A DNA stretch of 64,000 nt from contig DWWF01000002.1 of the NCBI GenBank assembly GCA_019119845.1, positions 13,374 through 77,373 on the forward strand. The letters are read 5' to 3'. A program made the position numbers and the translations under genes. The notes under the pieces were generated by a model. That model did no database searches and was not told the DNA's origin. It saw only the letters and a program-made list of their open reading frames with translations. Positions within the stretch are counted from its first letter, which is position 1. Every line of letters begins with the position of its first letter. Origin of the DNA: Candidatus Alistipes merdavium (GTDB taxonomy: Bacteria; Bacteroidota; Bacteroidia; Bacteroidales; Rikenellaceae). This document shows positions 3,611 to 57,702 of the stretch, in pieces.

Positions 3611-3901
3611 ATGGAGAACACCCCCTACACCCTGCTGCACGACGCGGCCGCACGGCGCTACTTTTTCGAGATCGACGGACACCGCGCCTACATCGAATAC
3701 GAAGAGCGGCCCGGCGCACTGGCGCTGACTCACACGATAGTCCCCGAAGAACTGCGCGGCGGCGGCATCGCCGCGGCACTCACGCAGGCCGTACTGGAGG
3801 AGATCCGCACACGGGGGCTGCGCATCGTGCCGGAGTGTTCGTATGTCGTCCGCTACATCGAGCGCCACCCCGAGTGGCAGAAGATCGTGGCAAGGGAGTA
3901 G
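3611..3901 (+). CDS. Small GNAT-like acetyltransferase (YjdJ-like)
   Basis: LTHTIVPEELRGGGIA and IVPECSYV motifs. Confidence 0.8.
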   Translation: MENTPYTLLHDAAARRYFFEIDGHRAYIEYEERPGALALTHTIVPEELRGGGIAAALTQAVLEEIRTRGLRIVPECSYVVRYIERHPEWQKIVARE

Positions 3902-3920: not shown

Positions 3921-4517
3921 ATTTGTATTGTCAATATCCTTTGCCGCCCGTGGCGGCACCACGAATCCGCACTCTCGTTTGACGCGGAAAAAGAGGGTGC
4001 GGGCTGCGGCGCGTCCGTCACGGGGTGGCACATAGGCCTGATCTTGCGCGCCCCGTGCAGCGCCGCGGCTCGCGCACTCCCGCGGAAAACGTCGTGCGGA
4101 GGCTTTTGGTACTTTTGGCCTCAAAAGTACATGAACAATCTTTTTTCTTTTCCTCTGCTTTTCGGTGGCGAAAAGCAGCAAAAAGCCTCTCGAAGTCCTT
4201 TTACGCCTTTCGGAAAAAACTCTTTTTTTCCCTGCTTTTCGATGGCGAAAAGCAGCAAAAGCCACCCGTCCGATTCCGATGTCGGCGTCCGGACGTCTGA
4301 AAGCGGCGTCGGGCGACTGCGCGGGTTTGCAAGCAAACCGTCCCCGCCGCTCTCGCTTTCAGCCCTCCGTCCGCTTCTCCGCCATCGGAACCAGGTCGGG
4401 ACCCGCCATGCGGGAGAAGAAGAGGTAATGGATATCGAGGTGCGTTGCCAAATAAAATAATGCCGCCCATGGCGGCACCACGAATCCGCACTCTCGTTTG
4501 ACGCGGGAAAAGAGGGG
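3921..4517 (+). repeat. Structured modular repeat array, locus 1 (linker tail, full unit 3942-4415, linker, partial unit 4461-4517)
   Basis: Near-identical to sequences at 49348-50092 (reverse) and 56047-57485; hairpins TGCCGCC-N3-GGCGGCA, GTACTTTTG-N4-CAAAAGTAC and CTGCTTTTCG-N4-CGAAAAGCAG (x2), plus a long nested stem at 4261-4415. Confidence 0.95.
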
Positions 4518-4616
4518 ACGGACCCTGCTTCCGCCGCCGAAAGTCCCGTTTCATACAGTCTCCCCACCGGACAAAAACAAAATGCCAAACCCCGGCAGAA
4601 ATTTTTCATCTGAAAA

Positions 4617-4648
4617 TTTGGTTTATAAAATAAACTACTTTATATTTG
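4617..4648 (+). promoter_or_regulatory. Promoter with palindromic operator in the spacer
   Basis: TTTG(4617-4620)-N20-TATATTTG(4641-4648); perfect GTTTAT-aaa-ATAAAC palindrome at 4621-4635. Confidence 0.65.
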
Positions 4649-4690
4649 CATCAGAAATACGAACCGAGCCCCGCTCACAAACCAAAAGCC

Positions 4691-4924
4691 ATGGAGACGA
4701 TACAAACTGCCCGTAACGACCGCCGCGCCCGATTCGCACGCAGCTTCGCGCGCAACGTCATTACCTATGCCGTAATCTGCGGATTCCTCACACTGGTCAA
4801 TGCCCTGACGTCGCCCCACTACTGGTGGGTAGCGTGGGTAGCCGGAGGCTGGGGCCTTGCCCTGCTGCTGCCCCTGCTCTTCCACCTGGTCGGTTGCGAC
4901 GAAGAGGAAGACGAGGCCAAATAA
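4691..4924 (+). CDS. Small 2TM-domain membrane protein
   Basis: ATG at 4691 downstream of the promoter; two hydrophobic helices, WWVAWVAGGWGLAL. Confidence 0.75.
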   Translation: METIQTARNDRRARFARSFARNVITYAVICGFLTLVNALTSPHYWWVAWVAGGWGLALLLPLLFHLVGCDEEEDEAK

Positions 4925-6520: not shown

Positions 6521-6633
6521 GAGGCCGCACGGATCGCGCGCGGAACGGAAGGGTCGCGAAAACCGTGCTCGGAGCCGAAAGAGGCCGCACGAATCGCGCG
6601 CGGAACGGAAGGGTCGCGAAAACCGTGCTCGGA
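6521..6633. repeat. 53-bp direct repeat, period 60, with degenerate continuation to about 6790
   Basis: gaggccgcacg(g/a)atcgcgcgcggaacggaagggtcgcgaaaaccgtgctcgga at 6521 and 6581, one mismatch. Confidence 0.9.
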
Positions 6634-6795
6634 ACGGAGGGAAGGCCGCAGAAATCACGCGCCGAACAGACGGGCCGCAGAGACCGCACGCGGAGCGGAA
6701 GGAGCCGCACGGATCGCCCCGAAGGGGCCGCGAGGGGCTTGAAGGGCCCGGAAACGCACGGAAGGGCCCCGCGGGAGGTGCGCCGCACGGAAAAA

Positions 6796-10109: not shown

Positions 10110-10282
10110 CGCAAGGTTCCGCAACGACGGCTTCCGACCGTCGGGATCAAAAGGGAATGCCGTGCGAATCGGCAACAGTTCCCGCTGCTGTGAGTTACAC
10201 CCTGCGTTCCGGCATCTCGGCCACTGTCCCCGCACGGGAACGGGAAGGCGCCGGAACGGTAACGAGTCAGAAGACCTGCCTA
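10110..10282 (+). ncRNA. Cobalamin riboswitch
   Basis: AGGTTCC...AAAAGGGAAtgccGTGcgAATC...CCCGCtgCTGTGA...GCCACTG...GGGAAGGC...AGTCAGAAGACCTGCC; TAATTTTG promoter at 10097-10104; upstream of B12-uptake genes. Confidence 0.93.
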
Positions 10283-10400
10283 CGGCGCCACGAAACGCAA
10301 CGCAACCCTGCGGAGAATGGGGTGACGCGCCCGCCGACGAGAACCGGCTCCGGTCACGTGCTCCCCGCTCCCCGCACCGAAACTGCCGAAACAACCCGCG

Positions 10401-18046: not shown

Positions 18047-18190
18047 AGCTGCGGCCAAAGATACGAAAATTTATCACAATTCGCGCGCGCGGCGCCCGCT
18101 AATCCGCGCGGCAGGGCGCTGTTTACAATTTGTTCATTAAAAAAACGCGCCGCGGCTTGCCGATCCGCAAACTCTCCCTATCTTTGTCAC

Positions 18191-18360
18191 GGCAAGGTTC
18201 CCCGCCGGCGGCTGCCGGCACGGGATCAAAAGGGAACGCCTGTGCGAATCAGGGACTATTCCCGTAGCTGTGAGCTCCATGCGGGCTGCGCAATCTCAAC
18301 ATGCCACTGTCCCCCGGGACGGGAAGGCGCGCAGCGGGAGCGAGTCAGAAGACCTGCCTT
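18191..18360 (+). ncRNA. Cobalamin riboswitch upstream of nrdDG
   Basis: Same conserved blocks as 10110-10282 (AAAAGGGAA, CCCGtagCTGTGA, GCCACTG, GGGAAGGC, AGTCAGAAGACCTGCC); TATCTTTG at 18179-18186. Confidence 0.93.
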
Positions 18361-18529
18361 GCCGCGAAAGGGGCCCGCCTTCGGGATGTAGGGCGACTCC
18401 GGAACTTTTTGACTGGCAACACATATTTTCACGTCAGAGGCATTCCCTCTCTGTCCGCTGCCGGATGGAGAGGCGAAGACGGGGAACGCCCGCACCGAAG
18501 ACACAGAACAAAAAAACACTGGGATAACC

Positions 18530-30544: not shown

Positions 30545-30628
30545 TACCCGGAGCCGGGGTCGAACCGGCACGACATTGCTGTCATTGGTGTTTGAGACCA
30601 ACGCGTCTACCGATTCCGCCATCCGGGC
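30545..30628 (-). tRNA. tRNA-Leu(CAA)
   Basis: GCCCGGATGGCGGAATCGGTAGACGCGTTGGTCTCAAACACCAA...GGTTCGACCCCGGCTCCGGGTA; long variable arm. Confidence 0.97.
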
Positions 30629-35182: not shown

Positions 35183-35275
35183 CGGTGCCGACACGGCAGG
35201 CCAACCGATATGACAGGCAGAGCCGGAAGGTCGGTGCCGCACGGCAGGCCAACCAGATATGACAGGCAGAGCCGG
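35183..35275. repeat. 44-bp tandem duplication
   Basis: cggtgccg(a)cacggcaggccaacc(a)gatatgacaggcagagccgg at 35183 and 35232. Confidence 0.85.
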
Positions 35276-35652
35276 GAGCTCCCCGAAAGGGACTTCCGGC
35301 TCGCTTTGCTGTTTCCATACCGGCGGGAGCGGCCGGCGGCAGGAGGCCCGGACGACGCTGACGGCAGTGTCGGCGGCGCATCCGAAAAGCCCCTGCCGGG
35401 GATGCAATCTTCCGATTATTGCACCGCAACATGTTGCCGATCGGGAAACTTTGTATATCTTTGTCCTGTGAAAAAGTCGGAATCCGGAGGCGCACCAGAG
35501 CCCTGACGCCCTCCGCACCCCGGACCGACGACTCTCCGAAAACGATTTGCGACGGCCCGGGGAATCTGTGCGAAGTTGCGTCACTTCATCATTTTGAATT
35601 CTTCAGCATACGGGTCGTCGCAATCTTTGTTTGCTCCGGCAAAAAGCGTGCC

Positions 35653-40895: not shown

Positions 40896-42872
40896 ATGAG
40901 AAGCTTGATTTTGGGAGTGCTTGCCTTCACTCTAATTCTGCCATTTACGGCAACCGGTCAGCATAGCGATAAAAGCAACAGAGTTTTTTGGGATGGCGGA
41001 ACAATACCGGACAACAGGTTCCGGGAATATGTATTGATCAATTTTGACACAGACCATAACGGAACCATAGACCAGACTGAAGCTGATGCTGTTACTGAAA
41101 TGCGTCTTAATCCGTTAGTCATAAATGAAGACAAGACAAAACCGGAAATTACTTCTCTGCAGGGGATAAGTTATTTTCAGAATCTTGAAACCTTAATGCT
41201 TACGAGCAATGAAATCAAACTTACAGACTTATCATATCTCTCACAGAACGGTAAGCTTAAACAGCTTGCTATCGATAATTCGGAGCTGTTAACCCAGCTC
41301 GACCTTTCCGTTGTTCCAACATTAGAAAGGTTTATCTACACCGGGACAAAACTCAAATCTTTAATTCTGGATAATCCGGAGTTGAAAGAAGCATATTTGT
41401 ACAACGATGATTGGAAAGGAGAAGGGCATAGCGGTCTTACTCAACTTGATTTTTCCGCACGCACCACAAATTTGGAGACACTGGATATCAGCGATAATTT
41501 CATTACCAAGATAGATCTCTCCCATTTAGTGAATTTGAAAAAGGTTTCCATTTCCTGCAAAAATCTTTCATCTCTAAATCTTCCGGCCAGTCTGAAGTTG
41601 ACCGAATTAGCGTATTGGGGCAAAACGAAGTTTCCGGGAAATCTTGCCGATTTCCCGAATCTAACACGACTTTCCATTAGAGGTGTGGAAACGCCTTTGG
41701 ATTTATCCAAGAACTCCAAACTGAAAGATCTGGACTGTTCATACAACGGACTGACGAGACTCGATGTGTCCGTTCTTCCCGATTTGGAGAAGCTGGTGTG
41801 TGATGGGAACGAACTTGTATCTTTGGATTTATCCAGGAATCCCAGGCTGAAAGAGTTGGAGTGTTCAAATAACAAATTACCGGAACTCGACGTGTCGGCT
41901 CTTCCCGATTTGGAGAAATTAAAATGCAAGTGGAATGCCATTACATCTTTAGACCTGTCCCAAACTACCAAACTGGTAGAATTAGACTGTTCAAATAACA
42001 AATTGACGAGCCTCGATATCTCACGCTGTCCAGCAATCAAAGATGTAAGATTAGGCTTCAATAATTTGACAGAATTCAATTTTTCGCATACAGAACTGGA
42101 GAACCTCAATAGCCGGGGAGCCTTCAAATCATCAAATCTGACTTTCTACGACGGAAATGCTATAGCAGACTATATGATAGACTGTTGGGTGTTTACCGGA
42201 GCTGCAGAGCCCAAACAGATCGACGGAGAGGCCAACAGAAACCTGCTTCAGTCAATACGGGATTACAAAAGAGATATCGCCGCCAAAGAACATGTTGCAG
42301 CCGAAGAACAACGAGCCAAGGCTCATCGTATGGCCGCAGAATATAAAAGGCAGATTATGCCATACATAACAAGCAACGACTGGAATGAGGCGGACAAAAT
42401 CGCAGCCGAGGCACTCTACAACCTGCCGGAAGGAGATGCCTTTCTCTACTATGTCAGAGCAAAGGCGTATTATCTGAACAATCTCGACTTTGAGGTGGAG
42501 GATAGCGAAAATATGACCGATTATTTCAAGGCATACCGCAGAGAGGCGGAACATTTGGCTGAACTCTGCCGTAAATCCATCACATGCGACCCATCTGACG
42601 GCAATGAAGCCTATTTTTACAGAGGGCTCGCATATATCGTGTTAGGAAGGGCTAATGACGCAGCAAATGACTTTATGCGATGTGCGAGAGGAAACGAATC
42701 TATCAAAGCAGTCTGTTACTACAATATAGGCATAGCATATAAAAATGCCGGGCGGTACAATGCGGCTCTCGATCAATTCAAAAATGCCCGCCAATACTTT
42801 TCCGATGCAGACAATAAAGAACGGTGCCTCAGAAAGATAAAAGAGTGCCAGCAAAAGATTAGCGGCAAATAA
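40896..42872 (+). CDS. Low-GC secreted leucine-rich-repeat protein with C-terminal TPR domain
   Basis: Signal peptide; IPDNRFREYVLINFDTDHNGTIDQTEA cap; LxxLxCxxNxLxxLDLS repeats; TPR (AYFYRGLAY, YYNIGIAY..AGRY..A); TATATTTG at 40866-40873. Confidence 0.85.
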   Translation: MRSLILGVLAFTLILPFTATGQHSDKSNRVFWDGGTIPDNRFREYVLINFDTDHNGTIDQTEADAVTEMRLNPLVINEDKTKPEITSLQGISYFQNLETLMLTSNEIKLTDLSYLSQNGKLKQLAIDNSELLTQLDLSVVPTLERFIYTGTKLKSLILDNPELKEAYLYNDDWKGEGHSGLTQLDFSARTTNLETLDISDNFITKIDLSHLVNLKKVSISCKNLSSLNLPASLKLTELAYWGKTKFPGNLADFPNLTRLSIRGVETPLDLSKNSKLKDLDCSYNGLTRLDVSVLPDLEKLVCDGNELVSLDLSRNPRLKELECSNNKLPELDVSALPDLEKLKCKWNAITSLDLSQTTKLVELDCSNNKLTSLDISRCPAIKDVRLGFNNLTEFNFSHTELENLNSRGAFKSSNLTFYDGNAIADYMIDCWVFTGAAEPKQIDGEANRNLLQSIRDYKRDIAAKEHVAAEEQRAKAHRMAAEYKRQIMPYITSNDWNEADKIAAEALYNLPEGDAFLYYVRAKAYYLNNLDFEVEDSENMTDYFKAYRREAEHLAELCRKSITCDPSDGNEAYFYRGLAYIVLGRANDAANDFMRCARGNESIKAVCYYNIGIAYKNAGRYNAALDQFKNARQYFSDADNKERCLRKIKECQQKISGK

Positions 42873-48460: not shown

Positions 48461-48667
48461 CTATTCGTTTAACCGTTGCGGGGCCTTGGGCACGATCAGC
48501 CAGAGGATGATGTACACCCAGAGCGAAAGGCCGCCGGCGAGGATCAGGATCAGGGTCATCAGCCGGACGAGCGAGACGTTGAGTCCGAAAAACTCGGCGA
48601 CGCCGCCGCACACGCCGGCCACGATGCCGTCCCGGGTTCTGTAAAGACGATTGTTGTTCGTTTGCAT
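48461..48667 (-). CDS. pspC: Minimal PspC-domain protein
   Basis: RLYRTRDGIVAGVCGGVAEFFG...YIILWLIVP. Confidence 0.88.
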   Translation of the reverse strand: MQTNNNRLYRTRDGIVAGVCGGVAEFFGLNVSLVRLMTLILILAGGLSLWVYIILWLIVPKAPQRLNE

Positions 48668-48680
48668 GGTCTTATCGTTT

Positions 48681-49217
48681 TTATTGTTTTTTGTCGTTGC
48701 CGTTGAATGAGAACCGCCGTGCGGGCTCCTCGGGAATGACGATCCAGAGGATGATGTAGATCCAGATGGAGATGCCGCCGAAGAGGATCAGCAGGAGCGT
48801 CACCAGACGAATCATCGTCGGGTCGGCGTCGAAAAATTCGCCAATGCCGCCGCAGATGCCGGCAATCGAGCGGTTCGTGCGCGAGCGGTAGAGACGGCGC
48901 CGCTCCGGCTCCGCGTCGGTTGGACTCTCACCTGCGCTCGCCGTCCGCGTCCCGTTGCGCGGCTCGCCGAAGTCGGAGGGCTCGCCCATCTGCGCCATCG
49001 CCGCATGCACCACGTCGAGCGTGATGACCCGCATGGGCGAGGAGACCCGTTCACGGAAAATCTCCGCCATCCGGGCTTCGATGTCGTTCATCGTCTCCGT
49101 ATCGCCCTCGGGCAGCCGGTTGCGGATGTCGTCGAAATAGCTCCGCAAGGCAAAATAGGCATCTTCGTCGAGCGTGAATGCCACGGAACCGATGTTCACG
49201 TTTACTGTCTCTTTCAT
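48681..49217 (-). CDS. PspC-domain protein
   Basis: N-terminal DIEARMAE domain plus RLYRSRTNRSIAGICGGIGEFF PspC motif. Confidence 0.88.
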   Translation of the reverse strand: MKETVNVNIGSVAFTLDEDAYFALRSYFDDIRNRLPEGDTETMNDIEARMAEIFRERVSSPMRVITLDVVHAAMAQMGEPSDFGEPRNGTRTASAGESPTDAEPERRRLYRSRTNRSIAGICGGIGEFFDADPTMIRLVTLLLILFGGISIWIYIILWIVIPEEPARRFSFNGNDKKQ

Positions 49218-49310: not shown

Positions 49311-49347
49311 GTACCTATTTTTTTTGATTTTTTTATATGCTGTCCCT

Positions 49348-50092
49348 CCCCGACTTGGTTCCGATGGCGGGAAAGCGGCCGGAGGGCTGAAAGCGACAGC
49401 GGCGGGGACGGTTTGCTTGCAAACCCGCGCAGTCGCCCGACGCCGCCTTCAGTCCTCCGGACGCCGACATCGGAATCGGTCGGGTGGCTTTTGCTGCTTT
49501 TCGCCACCGAAAAGCAGTTAAAATAAAAAAGAGTTTTTCATGTACTTTTGGGGCCAAAAGTACCAAAAGCCTCCGCACGTCGTTTTCCGCGGGAGTGCGC
49601 GAACCGCGGCGCTGCACGGGGCGCGCAAGATCAAGCCTATGCGCTACCCCGTGACGAACGCGCCGCAGCCCGCACCCTCTTTCTCCGCGTCAAACGAGAG
49701 TGCGGATTCGTGGTGCCGCCAACGGCGGCATTATTTATATGGCAATGCGCTTCGGATGCCCGTATCAACTTACTTTTTCTGAAATCTCCACCCGGTAGTG
49801 CGTTTCTTTTGGTTTCCCGCAAGGCGGGTCCCGATTTGGTTCCGATGGCGAGAAAGCGGACGGAGGGCTGAAAGCGACAGCGGCGGGGACGGTTTGCTTG
49901 CAAACCCGCGAATAGTCGCCCGACGCCGCTTTCAGTCCTCCGGACGCCGACATCGGAATCGGTCGGGTGGCTTTTGCTGCTTTTCGCCACCGAAAAGCAG
50001 AGAAAAAAGTTTTTTCAGACGTTTTCTCCGGAAGCCGAAAAAGGACGTCGAGAGGCTTTTTGCTGCTTCTCGCCACCGAAAACAAAAAAAAG
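49348..50092 (-). repeat. Structured modular repeat array, locus 2 (partial unit 50092-49815, linker, full unit 49730-49348)
   Basis: Reverse complement of the element at 3942-4415 and 56365-57350. Confidence 0.95.
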
Positions 50093-56046: not shown

Positions 56047-57485
56047 AAAAACTTTTTTCTCTGCTTTTCAGCGGCGAAAAGCAGCAAAAGCCCCCGAAGT
56101 CCTTTCCTCTTTTCAGAAAAGTGCCAAAAAACTTTTTTCCCTGCTTTTCGGTGGCGAAAAGCAGCAAAAGCCACCCGACCGATTCCGATGTCGACGTCCG
56201 GACGCCTGAAAGCGGCGTCGGGCGACTGCGCGGGTTTGCAAGCAAACCGTCCCCGCCGCTCTCGCTTTCAGCCCTCCGGCCGCTCTTTCGCCATCGGAAC
56301 CAAGTCGGGACCCGCCATGCGGGAAAAAAGAGTGCCGGAGCGCATGCCATATAAATTATTATACTGCCGCCTCCGGCGGCACAGTAATTCCGCACTCTCG
56401 TTCGACGCGGAAAAAAGAGGGTACGACACGCGGCGCGTCCGTCACGGGGTGGCGCTAAGGCCTGATCTTGCGCGCCCCGTGCAGCGCCGCGGCTCGCGCA
56501 CTCCCGCGGAGAACGACGTGCGGAGGCTTTTGGTACTTTTGGCCCCAAAAGTACATGAGAAAACTTTTTCTTTTTCTCTGCTTTTCGGCGGCGAAAAGCA
56601 GCAAAAGCCACCCGACCGATTCCGATGTCGGCGTCCGGACGCCTGAAAGCGGCGTCGGGCGACTGCGCGGGTTTGCAAGCAAACCGTCCCCGCCGCTCGC
56701 GCTTTCAGCCCTCCGGCCGCTCTTTCGCCATCGGAACCAAGTCGGGAATCACCTTGCGGAAAAAAATGGAGTTGCGAGGGTGGTTGGTTTTGCGAAACAA
56801 AAGTGACACGCAGCCGGAGGCGGGCAGGAAAAGTAAGCTGGAACGGGCTTCCGAGGCGCATTGCCATGTAAAATAAACAATGCCGCCGTTGGCGGCACCA
56901 CCAATCCGCACTCTCGTTTGACGCGGAAAAAGAGAGGGCGGGCTGCGGCGCGTCCGCCACGGGGTGGCGCATAGGCTTGATCTTGCGCGCCCCGTGCAGC
57001 GCCGCGGATCGCACGCTCCCGCGGAAAACGACGTGCGGAGGCTTTTGGTACTTTTGGCCCCAAAAGTACACGAGAAAACTTTTTCTTTTTCTCTGCTTTT
57101 CGGTGGCGAAAAGCAGCAAAAAACCTCTCGAAGTCCTTTTGCAGCTTCCGGAAAAACTCTTTTTTCTCTGCTTTTCGGTAGCGAAAAGCAGCAAAAGCCA
57201 CCCGACCGATTCCGATGTCGACGTCCGGACGCCTGAAAGCGGCGTCGGGCGACTGCGCGGGTTTGCAAGCAAACCGTCCCCGCCGCTCTCGCTTTCAGCC
57301 CTCCGTCCGCTCTTTCGCTATCGGAACCAAGTCGGGGATCGCCTTGCGGGGTAAAAAATAAAGCACACGTTACCGAAACGTATTTGTCTTTATTTATCCT
57401 TTGCCGCCCGTGGCGGCACCACAAATCCGCACTCCCGCGGAGAACGACGTGCGGAGGCTTTTGGTACTTTTGACCCCAAAAGTAC
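56047..57485 (+). repeat. Structured modular repeat array, locus 3 (partial unit 56061-56323, full units 56365-56760 and 56881-57350, internally deleted unit 57402-57485)
   Basis: Direct repeats visible in the sequence; same module order as loci 1 and 2. Confidence 0.97.
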
Positions 57486-57626
57486 AAGGGAAAAATACAT
57501 GGAACCTGCCGTTTTCAAAGATACGCACATCGAAACAAAAATCCAACTCTCGGGGCAGGAAAAGGGCGCGGCACGGGCCGGGGAGCAGAACAAAAAAAGC
57601 GGACGACTTTTTCAAGACGTCCGCTG

Positions 57627-57702
57627 TGGTAGCGGGGGGAGGACTCGAACCTCCGACCTCCGGGTTATGAGCCCGACGAGCTGCCAACTGCTCTACCCCG
57701 CG
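57627..57702 (-). tRNA. Initiator tRNA-Met(CAT)
   Basis: CGCGGGGTAGAGCAGTTGGCAGCTCGTCGGGCTCATAACCCGGAGGTCGGAGGTTCGAGTCCTCCCCCCGCTACCA; C1:A72 mismatch, GGG/CCC anticodon stem, encoded CCA; -7 box at about 57757-57764. Confidence 0.97.

Follow-up and report, generated by a model that had tools for sequence, protein, structure and literature searches.

A modular non-coding repeat of gut Alistipes composed of two related long hairpins facing each other on opposite strands

The closest described counterparts of the element dealt with here are interspersed, structured repeats of bacterial genomes: the intergenic, dispersed REP/BIME/REPIN hairpins of Proteobacteria, which form mosaics and inverted pairs, lie mostly downstream of genes and display compensatory changes pointing to a single-stranded fold; the Correia elements of Neisseria, the ERIC/IRU sequences of enterobacteria and the bcr1-type repeats of the Bacillus cereus group, imperfect palindromes of 100-160 bp located in transcribed spacers and folding in RNA; and the BOX elements of Streptococcus pneumoniae, in which boxA, boxB and boxC follow one another in a fixed order, with a variable number of internal modules and a predicted stable structure. 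These traits are shared by a non-coding repeat of gut Alistipes, one copy of which (~480 bases) occupies positions 3942-4415 of a stretch of 64,000 nucleotides from Candidatus Alistipes merdavium (contig DWWF01000002.1, positions 13,374 to 77,373 of the forward strand), hereafter the window. The repeat is modular, with a unit of ~520 nt, and consists of two related long hairpins, designated B and D, that face each other on opposite strands, each being accompanied by two small hairpins (A and G in the case of B, E and C in the case of D). By analogy, the family behaves like the REP/BIME/REPIN, ERIC, Correia, BOX and bcr1 repeats.

The analogy has its limits. REP and REPIN elements are by form short palindromes of 20-40 nt whose 5' tetranucleotide is conserved, most often numbering tens to hundreds of copies, whereas the Alistipes modules are 4-6 times longer, their hairpins spanning 135-160 nt, occur in 1-12 copies in related genomes, have a conserved apex and variable ends, lack in the source genome a RAYT gene of the kind that REPs typically flank, and include a T tract in their conserved design. 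Assignment to the MITEs (miniature transposable elements with inverted repeats) was likewise rejected, the outer stems being wholly different between subfamilies while the apex is conserved, with no transposase neighbour in ~110 loci; MITEs, as non-autonomous derivatives of insertion sequences (IS), have conserved terminal inverted repeats in common with an autonomous IS and display target-site duplication. Some repeats of the Correia, ERIC and bcr type affect termination or processing, and the G.U patterns of the bcr repeats have been used as an argument for a role at the RNA level. The Alistipes family bears no sequence relation to these families, neither terminal inverted repeats nor a target duplication of the Correia type were found in it, and we know of no convergent pair of paralogous modules with two apex types described for any of them. 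BOX is read in one orientation, whereas the two halves of the Alistipes unit are opposite in polarity, each having its own terminator-like tail. With intrinsic (Rho-independent, including bidirectional) terminators the modules share a GC-rich stem behind which, on the sense strand, comes a U tract and, by virtue of their convergent layout, signals in both directions, but differ from them in the size of the stem-loops and in their conserved apex, in having a short U tract set back by 3-6 nt, and in being repeated and strain-variable.

By their defining features, the family can be assigned neither to REP-RAYT systems, MITEs, IS605-type ends or UG27 arrays nor to any family of Rfam. The search of Rfam 15 returned nothing on the repeats at the gathering score and, with E up to 10, just two chance microRNA models (16-20 bits); the phage and plasmid collections, searched in distant mode, contained no match to the family, and no description of it was found in the literature searched on REP, MITE or hairpin repeats of Alistipes or Bacteroidales. 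What sets the family apart is that the apex is conserved while the stems are free to change, that a T tract is built in, that a single scaffold carries two types of apex and that two convergent paralogues make up the unit. Alistipes is an abundant genus of the human and animal gut for which almost no non-coding elements have been described.

Comparisons of several kinds provide good support for selection acting on an intramolecular fold. The minimum free energy (MFE) of the whole unit, set against shuffled sequence, corresponds to z-scores of -8.2 on the + strand and -6.8 on the - strand. As originally noticed from the window alone, stems are kept while loops are free to vary: in the source genome (9 AB and 12 D copies) variable columns make up 13% of the paired and 45-47% of the unpaired positions. 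The stem of the A hairpin (TGCCGCC-N3-GGCGGCA) is identical in the six copies of the window, the loops of which read cgt, cat, gtt, tcc, gtt and cgt; in the G and C hairpins (repeat families D4 and D3, respectively) the loops vary and the stems are retained, and the predicted fold of D contains the nested stems that had been listed. In other Alistipes and Rikenellaceae the constraint on both long hairpins is seen in a different guise, the apices being near-invariant across species and the outer stems being swapped for unrelated yet complementary sequences. Among the 39 D sequences analysed on -, compensatory changes affect 19 of the 30 pairs, 92.7% of the cells are paired, compared to 75.2% after shuffling, and the covariation score is 0.444, compared to 0.152; the corresponding values for the 23 B sequences analysed on + are 25 of the 50 pairs, 94.5% versus 79.4%, and 0.394 versus 0.118. 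Overall, the shuffled scores were 0.12-0.15 and none of 500 shuffles reached the observed pairing or score with either module; slid controls yielded scores of 0.06-0.12 for D and 0.06-0.10 for B.

A different fate befell the proposal that the changes preserve pairing on one and the same strand of the whole unit. The two halves of the unit differ in polarity: + is the sense strand of B and its companions A and G, and - that of D and its companions E and C. The energies of the whole unit on the two strands are close (-234.1 on + and -232.8 kcal/mol on -) because the two halves cancel each other. In fact, the B body of the window has an MFE of -84.0 on + and -71.6 on -, and the D body one of -68.5 on + and -75.0 on -; the MFE favours + in 31 of the 34 copies of B and - in 109 of the 120 copies of D. 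With dinucleotide shuffles, the z-score of D is -3.45 on - and -3.03 on +, with 31 of the 45 representative clusters favouring - (p = 0.007). The alifold energies of the source-genome copies behave in the same way (-106.3 on + and -90.3 on - for AB; -59.6 on + and -76.8 on - for D, with 45 G.U cells on - and 14 on +). When the two arms of B are compared, the isolated transition mismatches are wobble-compatible in 20 cases on + and in 4 on -, and the consensus structure of B on + contains G.U and A.C in a ratio of 36 to 11 (p = 3e-4). The same comparison for D gives 82 wobble-compatible mismatches on - and 26 on +, a single conserved site supplying 29 of the 82.

The individual wobble pairs pointed out originally are real. 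Two pairs of stem B (GCGGGCTGCGGCGC / GCGCCGCGGCTCGC) are G.T on +, and the 49.6-kb copy gains a third through a C to T change; in the D copy at ~49.44 kb an A to G change does place CTGAAGGCG opposite CGCTTTCAG with a G.T pair on +, a pair that runs counter to the overall trend of D. Summed on + over both modules, the wobble-compatible cells are 56 versus 43, near the equal distribution between strands that the original prediction had itself named as contrary to it, and the signal emerges only when the modules are treated separately. Thus, a strand-specific folding signal can cancel when a repeat unit is treated as a single strand, and strand tests should therefore be carried out module by module. 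Of the original prediction, what stands is selection on a single-stranded fold as opposed to a double-stranded palindrome, in agreement with the covariation and the strand-biased wobble; what falls is the notion that one strand of the entire 400-520-nt unit is the folded one.

The same data bear on the possibility that the repeat operates as a double-stranded palindrome, be it a site for a dimeric DNA-binding or nucleoid protein or a cruciform-forming sequence. The apex of D is a near-perfect inverted repeat (GGTTTGC-AA-GCAAACC) and its central C/G to T/A change is symmetric in both halves, as would befit such a site. An operator, however, has no need of 60-70-bp stems of wholly different sequence that covary; wobble pairs, MFE and T tract are all strand-asymmetric, and so is the apex, where 8-9 nt on the - strand (CGCG plus ~4-5 variable nt before a conserved AG) are found on one side only. 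We consider this explanation highly improbable.

The relationship between the two modules was addressed with a covariance model, R1, for which D on the - strand served as the source. The D copies obtain 124-134 bits from R1 on - and 11-15 bits antisense; the model also matches, from end to end and on the opposite strand, every intact B of the window (30-33 bits, E ~1e-6), and likewise those of conspecific strains. Since a model derived from D on - detects B on +, the sequences indicate that B and D are paralogous modules in convergent orientation, A-B-G being read on + and E-D-C on -. Some D-apex copies of other species have a base of the B type, CCGCAC...GCGGAAAGAGG...CCCGCGAAAAGCAACTTGCGGCTGGTTTTGG. 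On its sense strand each module presents the same succession of parts: first a small GC hairpin (A or E), next the long hairpin, then the motif GG-(C)TTTT(T)-G, and last G or C, a small hairpin with an AT stem. The long hairpin, 135-160 nt in size, is irregular, its stems being free to change provided that pairing is kept and its apical 30-40 nt being conserved across genera. Direct counts on 39 D and 23 B representatives revealed a run of at least four T (4-5 T) on the sense side of 34 D and 22 B and on the antisense side of 8 D and of no B. Like intrinsic terminators, the modules thus combine a stable GC-rich hairpin with a T (U) tract behind it on the sense strand, and the occurrence of the tract after each hairpin on the sense strand only favours RNA over single-stranded DNA (ssDNA) as the folded molecule.

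The best reading of these data, which we hold with moderate confidence, is that the repeat may function at the RNA level as a terminator-like intergenic element, spread and reshuffled by recombination. Transcription entering from a neighbouring gene would lead the sense module to fold as a long stem-loop beside a U tract, a structure that would bring transcription to a halt or shield the 3' end, with the conserved apex probably serving as the docking site for a putative factor; a convergent pair would counter transcription from either side, and for this reason the cassette would be tolerable in any gene spacer; finally, the copies would spread and change through recombination. Covariation, opposite polarity of the modules, the kinship of B and D in inverse orientation, sense-only T tract, strain differences in array content and a gene-direction bias speak for this reading. 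As to the latter, in counts that rest on our own gene calls, based on GC content at third codon positions (GC3) and possibly wrong, 28 of 94 D elements lie between convergent and 9 of 94 between divergent genes, and the sense strand of D elements without a nearby B that are located between co-directional genes is aligned with those genes in 35 cases and opposed to them in 11. If modules do end or stabilize transcripts, they would constitute portable, orientation-defined terminator parts for Bacteroidota, and the conserved apices would point to a putative binding factor.

On the other hand, several observations weigh against the terminator-like function. The T tract begins 3-6 nt past the base of the stem and comprises just 4-5 T, the stems are far longer than those of ordinary intrinsic terminators, and a plain terminator role leaves the conservation of the apex unexplained. 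Furthermore, about one quarter of the D-only elements between co-directional genes are antisense to those genes, some arrays of other genomes (L174 and L178) are situated between apparently divergent genes, as called by the fallible GC3 heuristic, and the wobble bias of D is weak if the MAFFT/alifold alignment alone is considered (32 vs 20, p = 0.13).

The family is patchily distributed. The 20-nt core of D, GCGGGTTTGYAARCAAACCG, has matches in >116 public-genome stretches, nearly all of Alistipes/Rikenellaceae and including, by title, Alistipes timonensis JC136 (DSM 25383), A. montrealensis kh20, A. muris DSM 112343 and A. senegalensis, and is found in exact form in 16 of the 151 Alistipes species sampled, a control pattern giving 0 matches; the apical loop of B is rarer (6 of the 151 species) and adjoins D in a constant relative orientation. 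R1 identifies the modules in 27 of 201 Rikenellaceae genomes, belonging to 5 of 31 genera, with 1-12 copies per genome arranged as lone modules, as convergent or divergent pairs or as tandem arrays with a period of ~270 to 575 nt. In another Rikenellaceae genus (genome G189, locus L178, 1900-3160), the unit of a tandem array with a period of ~520-575 nt is made of one D-type module and a ~350-nt non-palindromic spacer, its core carrying the compensatory variant GTTTTGC...GCAAAAC. The flanks of the elements are unrelated housekeeping genes: clustering of the 366 flanking open reading frames from ~110 loci revealed no recurrent neighbour family, the largest cluster consisting of 5 members from 3 loci and comprising ordinary genes.

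The conservation of the apex across five genera while the stems covary, and the resemblance of the modules (5' hairpin, body, U tract with 3' hairpin) to a stable small RNA, would also suit independent genes for trans-acting small RNAs, e.g., regulatory or protein-binding ones, with their own promoters, the apex as active site and the arrays as gene clusters; the arrays of L177 and L178 do lie upstream of a gene without a co-directional gene feeding into them. Nevertheless, inspection by eye disclosed no consistent promoter of the Bacteroidota type (TTTG ... TAnnTTTG) upstream of the modules, at L134 D and B are ~30 nt apart, leaving no space for two promoters, and copy number and placement shift among conspecific strains, which one would hardly expect of dosage-sensitive regulators. 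Independent small-RNA genes are thus, in our opinion, distinctly unlikely. A more tentative proposal, unlikely too although worth stating, is that the modules may represent a new class of structured RNA of Rikenellaceae, ~230 nt long and made of three hairpins, bearing one of two interchangeable conserved apices recognized by a putative dedicated protein, in which case the arrays of convergent pairs would be its gene clusters and not terminator-bearing junk.

The copy at 3942-4415 lies in a spacer; on its left a gene for a GNAT acetyltransferase (3611-3901, +; PF14542) ends with its stop codon, and on its right is the promoter of a gene for a small 2TM protein starting at 4692. This promoter, at 4612-4650, is a canonical Bacteroidota one (TTTG ... 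TATATTTG). Two other Alistipes species (L164 and L166) have retained the downstream TTTG...TATATTTG in their orthologous MutY-GNAT-2TM spacers, from which the array is absent. From such empty orthologous sites no target duplication could be defined. On contigs of conspecific strains from other metagenomes, which encode an identical GNAT protein, the spacer is found as B-D (as in the window), as B-D-B-D, as miniB-D-B-D or as a lone D that continues into what in the source genome is the right flank of the C4 array. The miniB form (L254 and L255, ~2860-2905) consists only of CCGCAC-tttttccg-GTGCGG and TTTTTG located directly after the GNAT gene and resembles the copy at 57395-57494 of the window, from which the entire B hairpin is gone between two GCACTC repeats, A hairpin, basal stem, T tract and G hairpin being retained.

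The last state emerges from comparison of L255 (2780-3400) with C4:169950-170050: a D module links the GNAT locus of one conspecific strain with the sequence that lies to the right of the C4 array, a chromosomal rearrangement mediated by the repeats. Homologous and unequal recombination between copies is probably the cause of both the changes in unit number and the joining of arrays. Insofar as unit number differs among conspecific strains and one strain is rearranged via two arrays, the repeats are hot spots of structural variation, a circumstance that bears on metagenome assembly and strain typing.

Dispersed copies, patchy species distribution, 1-12 copies per genome, presence or absence at orthologous sites and array content that differs among strains are also what one would expect of REPIN- or MITE-like selfish DNA moving via an ssDNA intermediate, with an enzyme recognizing the folded ssDNA and any effect at the RNA level being incidental. 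Indeed, G.T pairs are tolerated in DNA hairpins as well, and for 18 of the 28 D copies of three complete genomes sampled by GC skew the sense strand coincides with the leading strand, which is identical in sequence to the lagging-strand template. Yet this replication bias (64-70%) is no stronger than the gene-direction bias (76%), and no dedicated mobilizing enzyme was found, either as Y1/RAYT or TnpB in the source genome or as a transposase or reverse transcriptase among the ~110 loci, where no gene recurs beside the elements. More specifically, PF01797 (RAYT, Y1 HUH) gave no match in the source genome, which is 91.8% complete, while six control genomes gave matches; PF07282 (TnpB) was not found in it either, whereas IS200/IS605-type ends or TnpB guide-RNA scaffolds would call for a TnpA(Y1) or TnpB gene in the genome. 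Moreover, variable ends with a conserved apex are the reverse of the MITE/REP logic, the opposite strand preference of the two modules is ill-suited to a single active strand, and the conservation of the T tract on the sense strand would find no explanation. Selfish DNA of this kind is accordingly regarded as an unlikely, though not far-fetched, identity of the repeat, and the terminator-like RNA element is the reading that we prefer.

One more described system deserves comparison. The non-coding RNA arrays of UG27 reverse transcriptases are made of ~150-nt units, each with a main hairpin into which an asymmetric internal loop bearing conserved motifs is inserted and with one additional hairpin at the base (10.64898/2026.09.22.753630). 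The Alistipes repeats, too, have tandem ~150-nt hairpin units with an internal loop that is asymmetric and conserved and with an additional basal hairpin, and the source genome holds a fragment of a UG26-type defence reverse transcriptase (C33:963-1748, L162; PADLOC RT_UG26, E = 1.8e-104, profile positions 159-397 of 398), so that the units could be imagined to be template RNAs for such an enzyme. This is barely conceivable, since the fragment is truncated and located near the start of another contig, away from the arrays, no array adjoins any reverse transcriptase, and a genuine UG26 is present in just 2 of the 27 module-positive genomes. Furthermore, the UG27 units are described as highly diverse, adjacent to the reverse transcriptase and contained in prophages, whereas the Alistipes ones are ~90% identical and dispersed in housekeeping spacers, outside prophages. 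The template idea was rejected on account of the lack of adjacency to the arrays and of co-occurrence of the modules with UG26/UG27 enzymes.

Besides the copy at the GNAT locus, the window contains two further arrays, the first of which is inverted, and the 2.32-Mb source genome has three more loci, on its contigs C4 and C8; in all, it holds 12 copies of D and 9 of B (AB). The parts are listed in Table 1.

Table 1. Parts of the repeat at 3942-4415 and further arrays in the window
Feature	Position	Strand	Basis and remarks
A, small GC hairpin at 5' end of module 1, TGCCGCC-cgt-GGCGGCA	3942-3958	+	Stem identical in all copies, loop variable; GC hairpin at equal position in other species
B, long hairpin of module 1; basal stem CCGCAC/GTGCGG; conserved apical loop AGGCCTGATCTT	3967-4099	+ (sense)	Fold energy, covariation, G.U bias; R1 match 3955-4110 on +
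T tract CTTTTGG, downstream of B on B sense strand	4103-4109	+	T run >=4 in B representatives (counts in text)
G, small AT-stem hairpin at 3' end of module 1, GTACTTTTGG-cc-TCAAAAGTAC	4109-4130	+	Repeat family D4; helix 6 of B covariation set
Extra copy of C hairpin, CTGCTTTTCG-gtgg-CGAAAAGCAG	4155-4178	-	Repeat family D3; presence differs among copies and strains
C, small AT-stem hairpin, 3' end of module 2 read on -	4232-4255	-	Repeat family D3; on - comes after D and tract GGCTTTTG
T tract of module 2, TGGCTTTTG on -	4256-4264	-	T run >=4 after D on - versus other strand (counts in text)
D, long hairpin of module 2; conserved apex on - CGGGGAC-GGTTTGCTTGCAAACC-CGCGnnnAGTCGCCCG	4265-4400	- (sense)	R1 126 bits on - at 4255-4411; fold energy; covariation
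E, small GC hairpin CCCGC-cat-GCGGG, 5' end of module 2 read on -	4402-4414	-	Sequence and fold
Truncated start of second module 1 (A hairpin and 5' arm of B), right edge of array	4461-4521	+	Repeat family D5; right edge common to conspecific strains
Second array, opposite orientation; D x2 (49338-49494, 49819-49977), B x1 (49562-49717)	49338-50092	-	Repeat comparison, R1
Third array; D 56164-56320, 56601-56757, 57191-57347 (sense -); B 56378-56533, 56894-57049 (sense +); B-deleted copy 57395-57494	56047-57494	+	Repeat comparison, R1

Some small hairpins have loops that are inverted between copies (C4:169555-169575 and C8:62880-62905), the A loop being AAC instead of the GTT of other copies and the G loop GGGGCC instead of GGCCCC; this is the pattern that would be expected from the flipping of a palindrome or the inversion of a whole small hairpin. 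To the right of the third array, at a distance of ~135 nt, a tRNA gene at 57630-57702 (-) is transcribed toward the array, and a second one is present at 30545-30628 (-). The window also contains other short tandem or direct repeats having no relation to the hairpin family, at 6521-6699 (3 x ~60 nt), 35183-35280 (2 x 49 nt), 41695-41946 (2 x 126 nt) and 48473-48863 (2 x 147 nt, spaced 244 nt), as well as two cobalamin riboswitches (RF00174) at 10111-10297 (+) and 18178-18375 (+), which score 96.8 and 103.4 bits, respectively.

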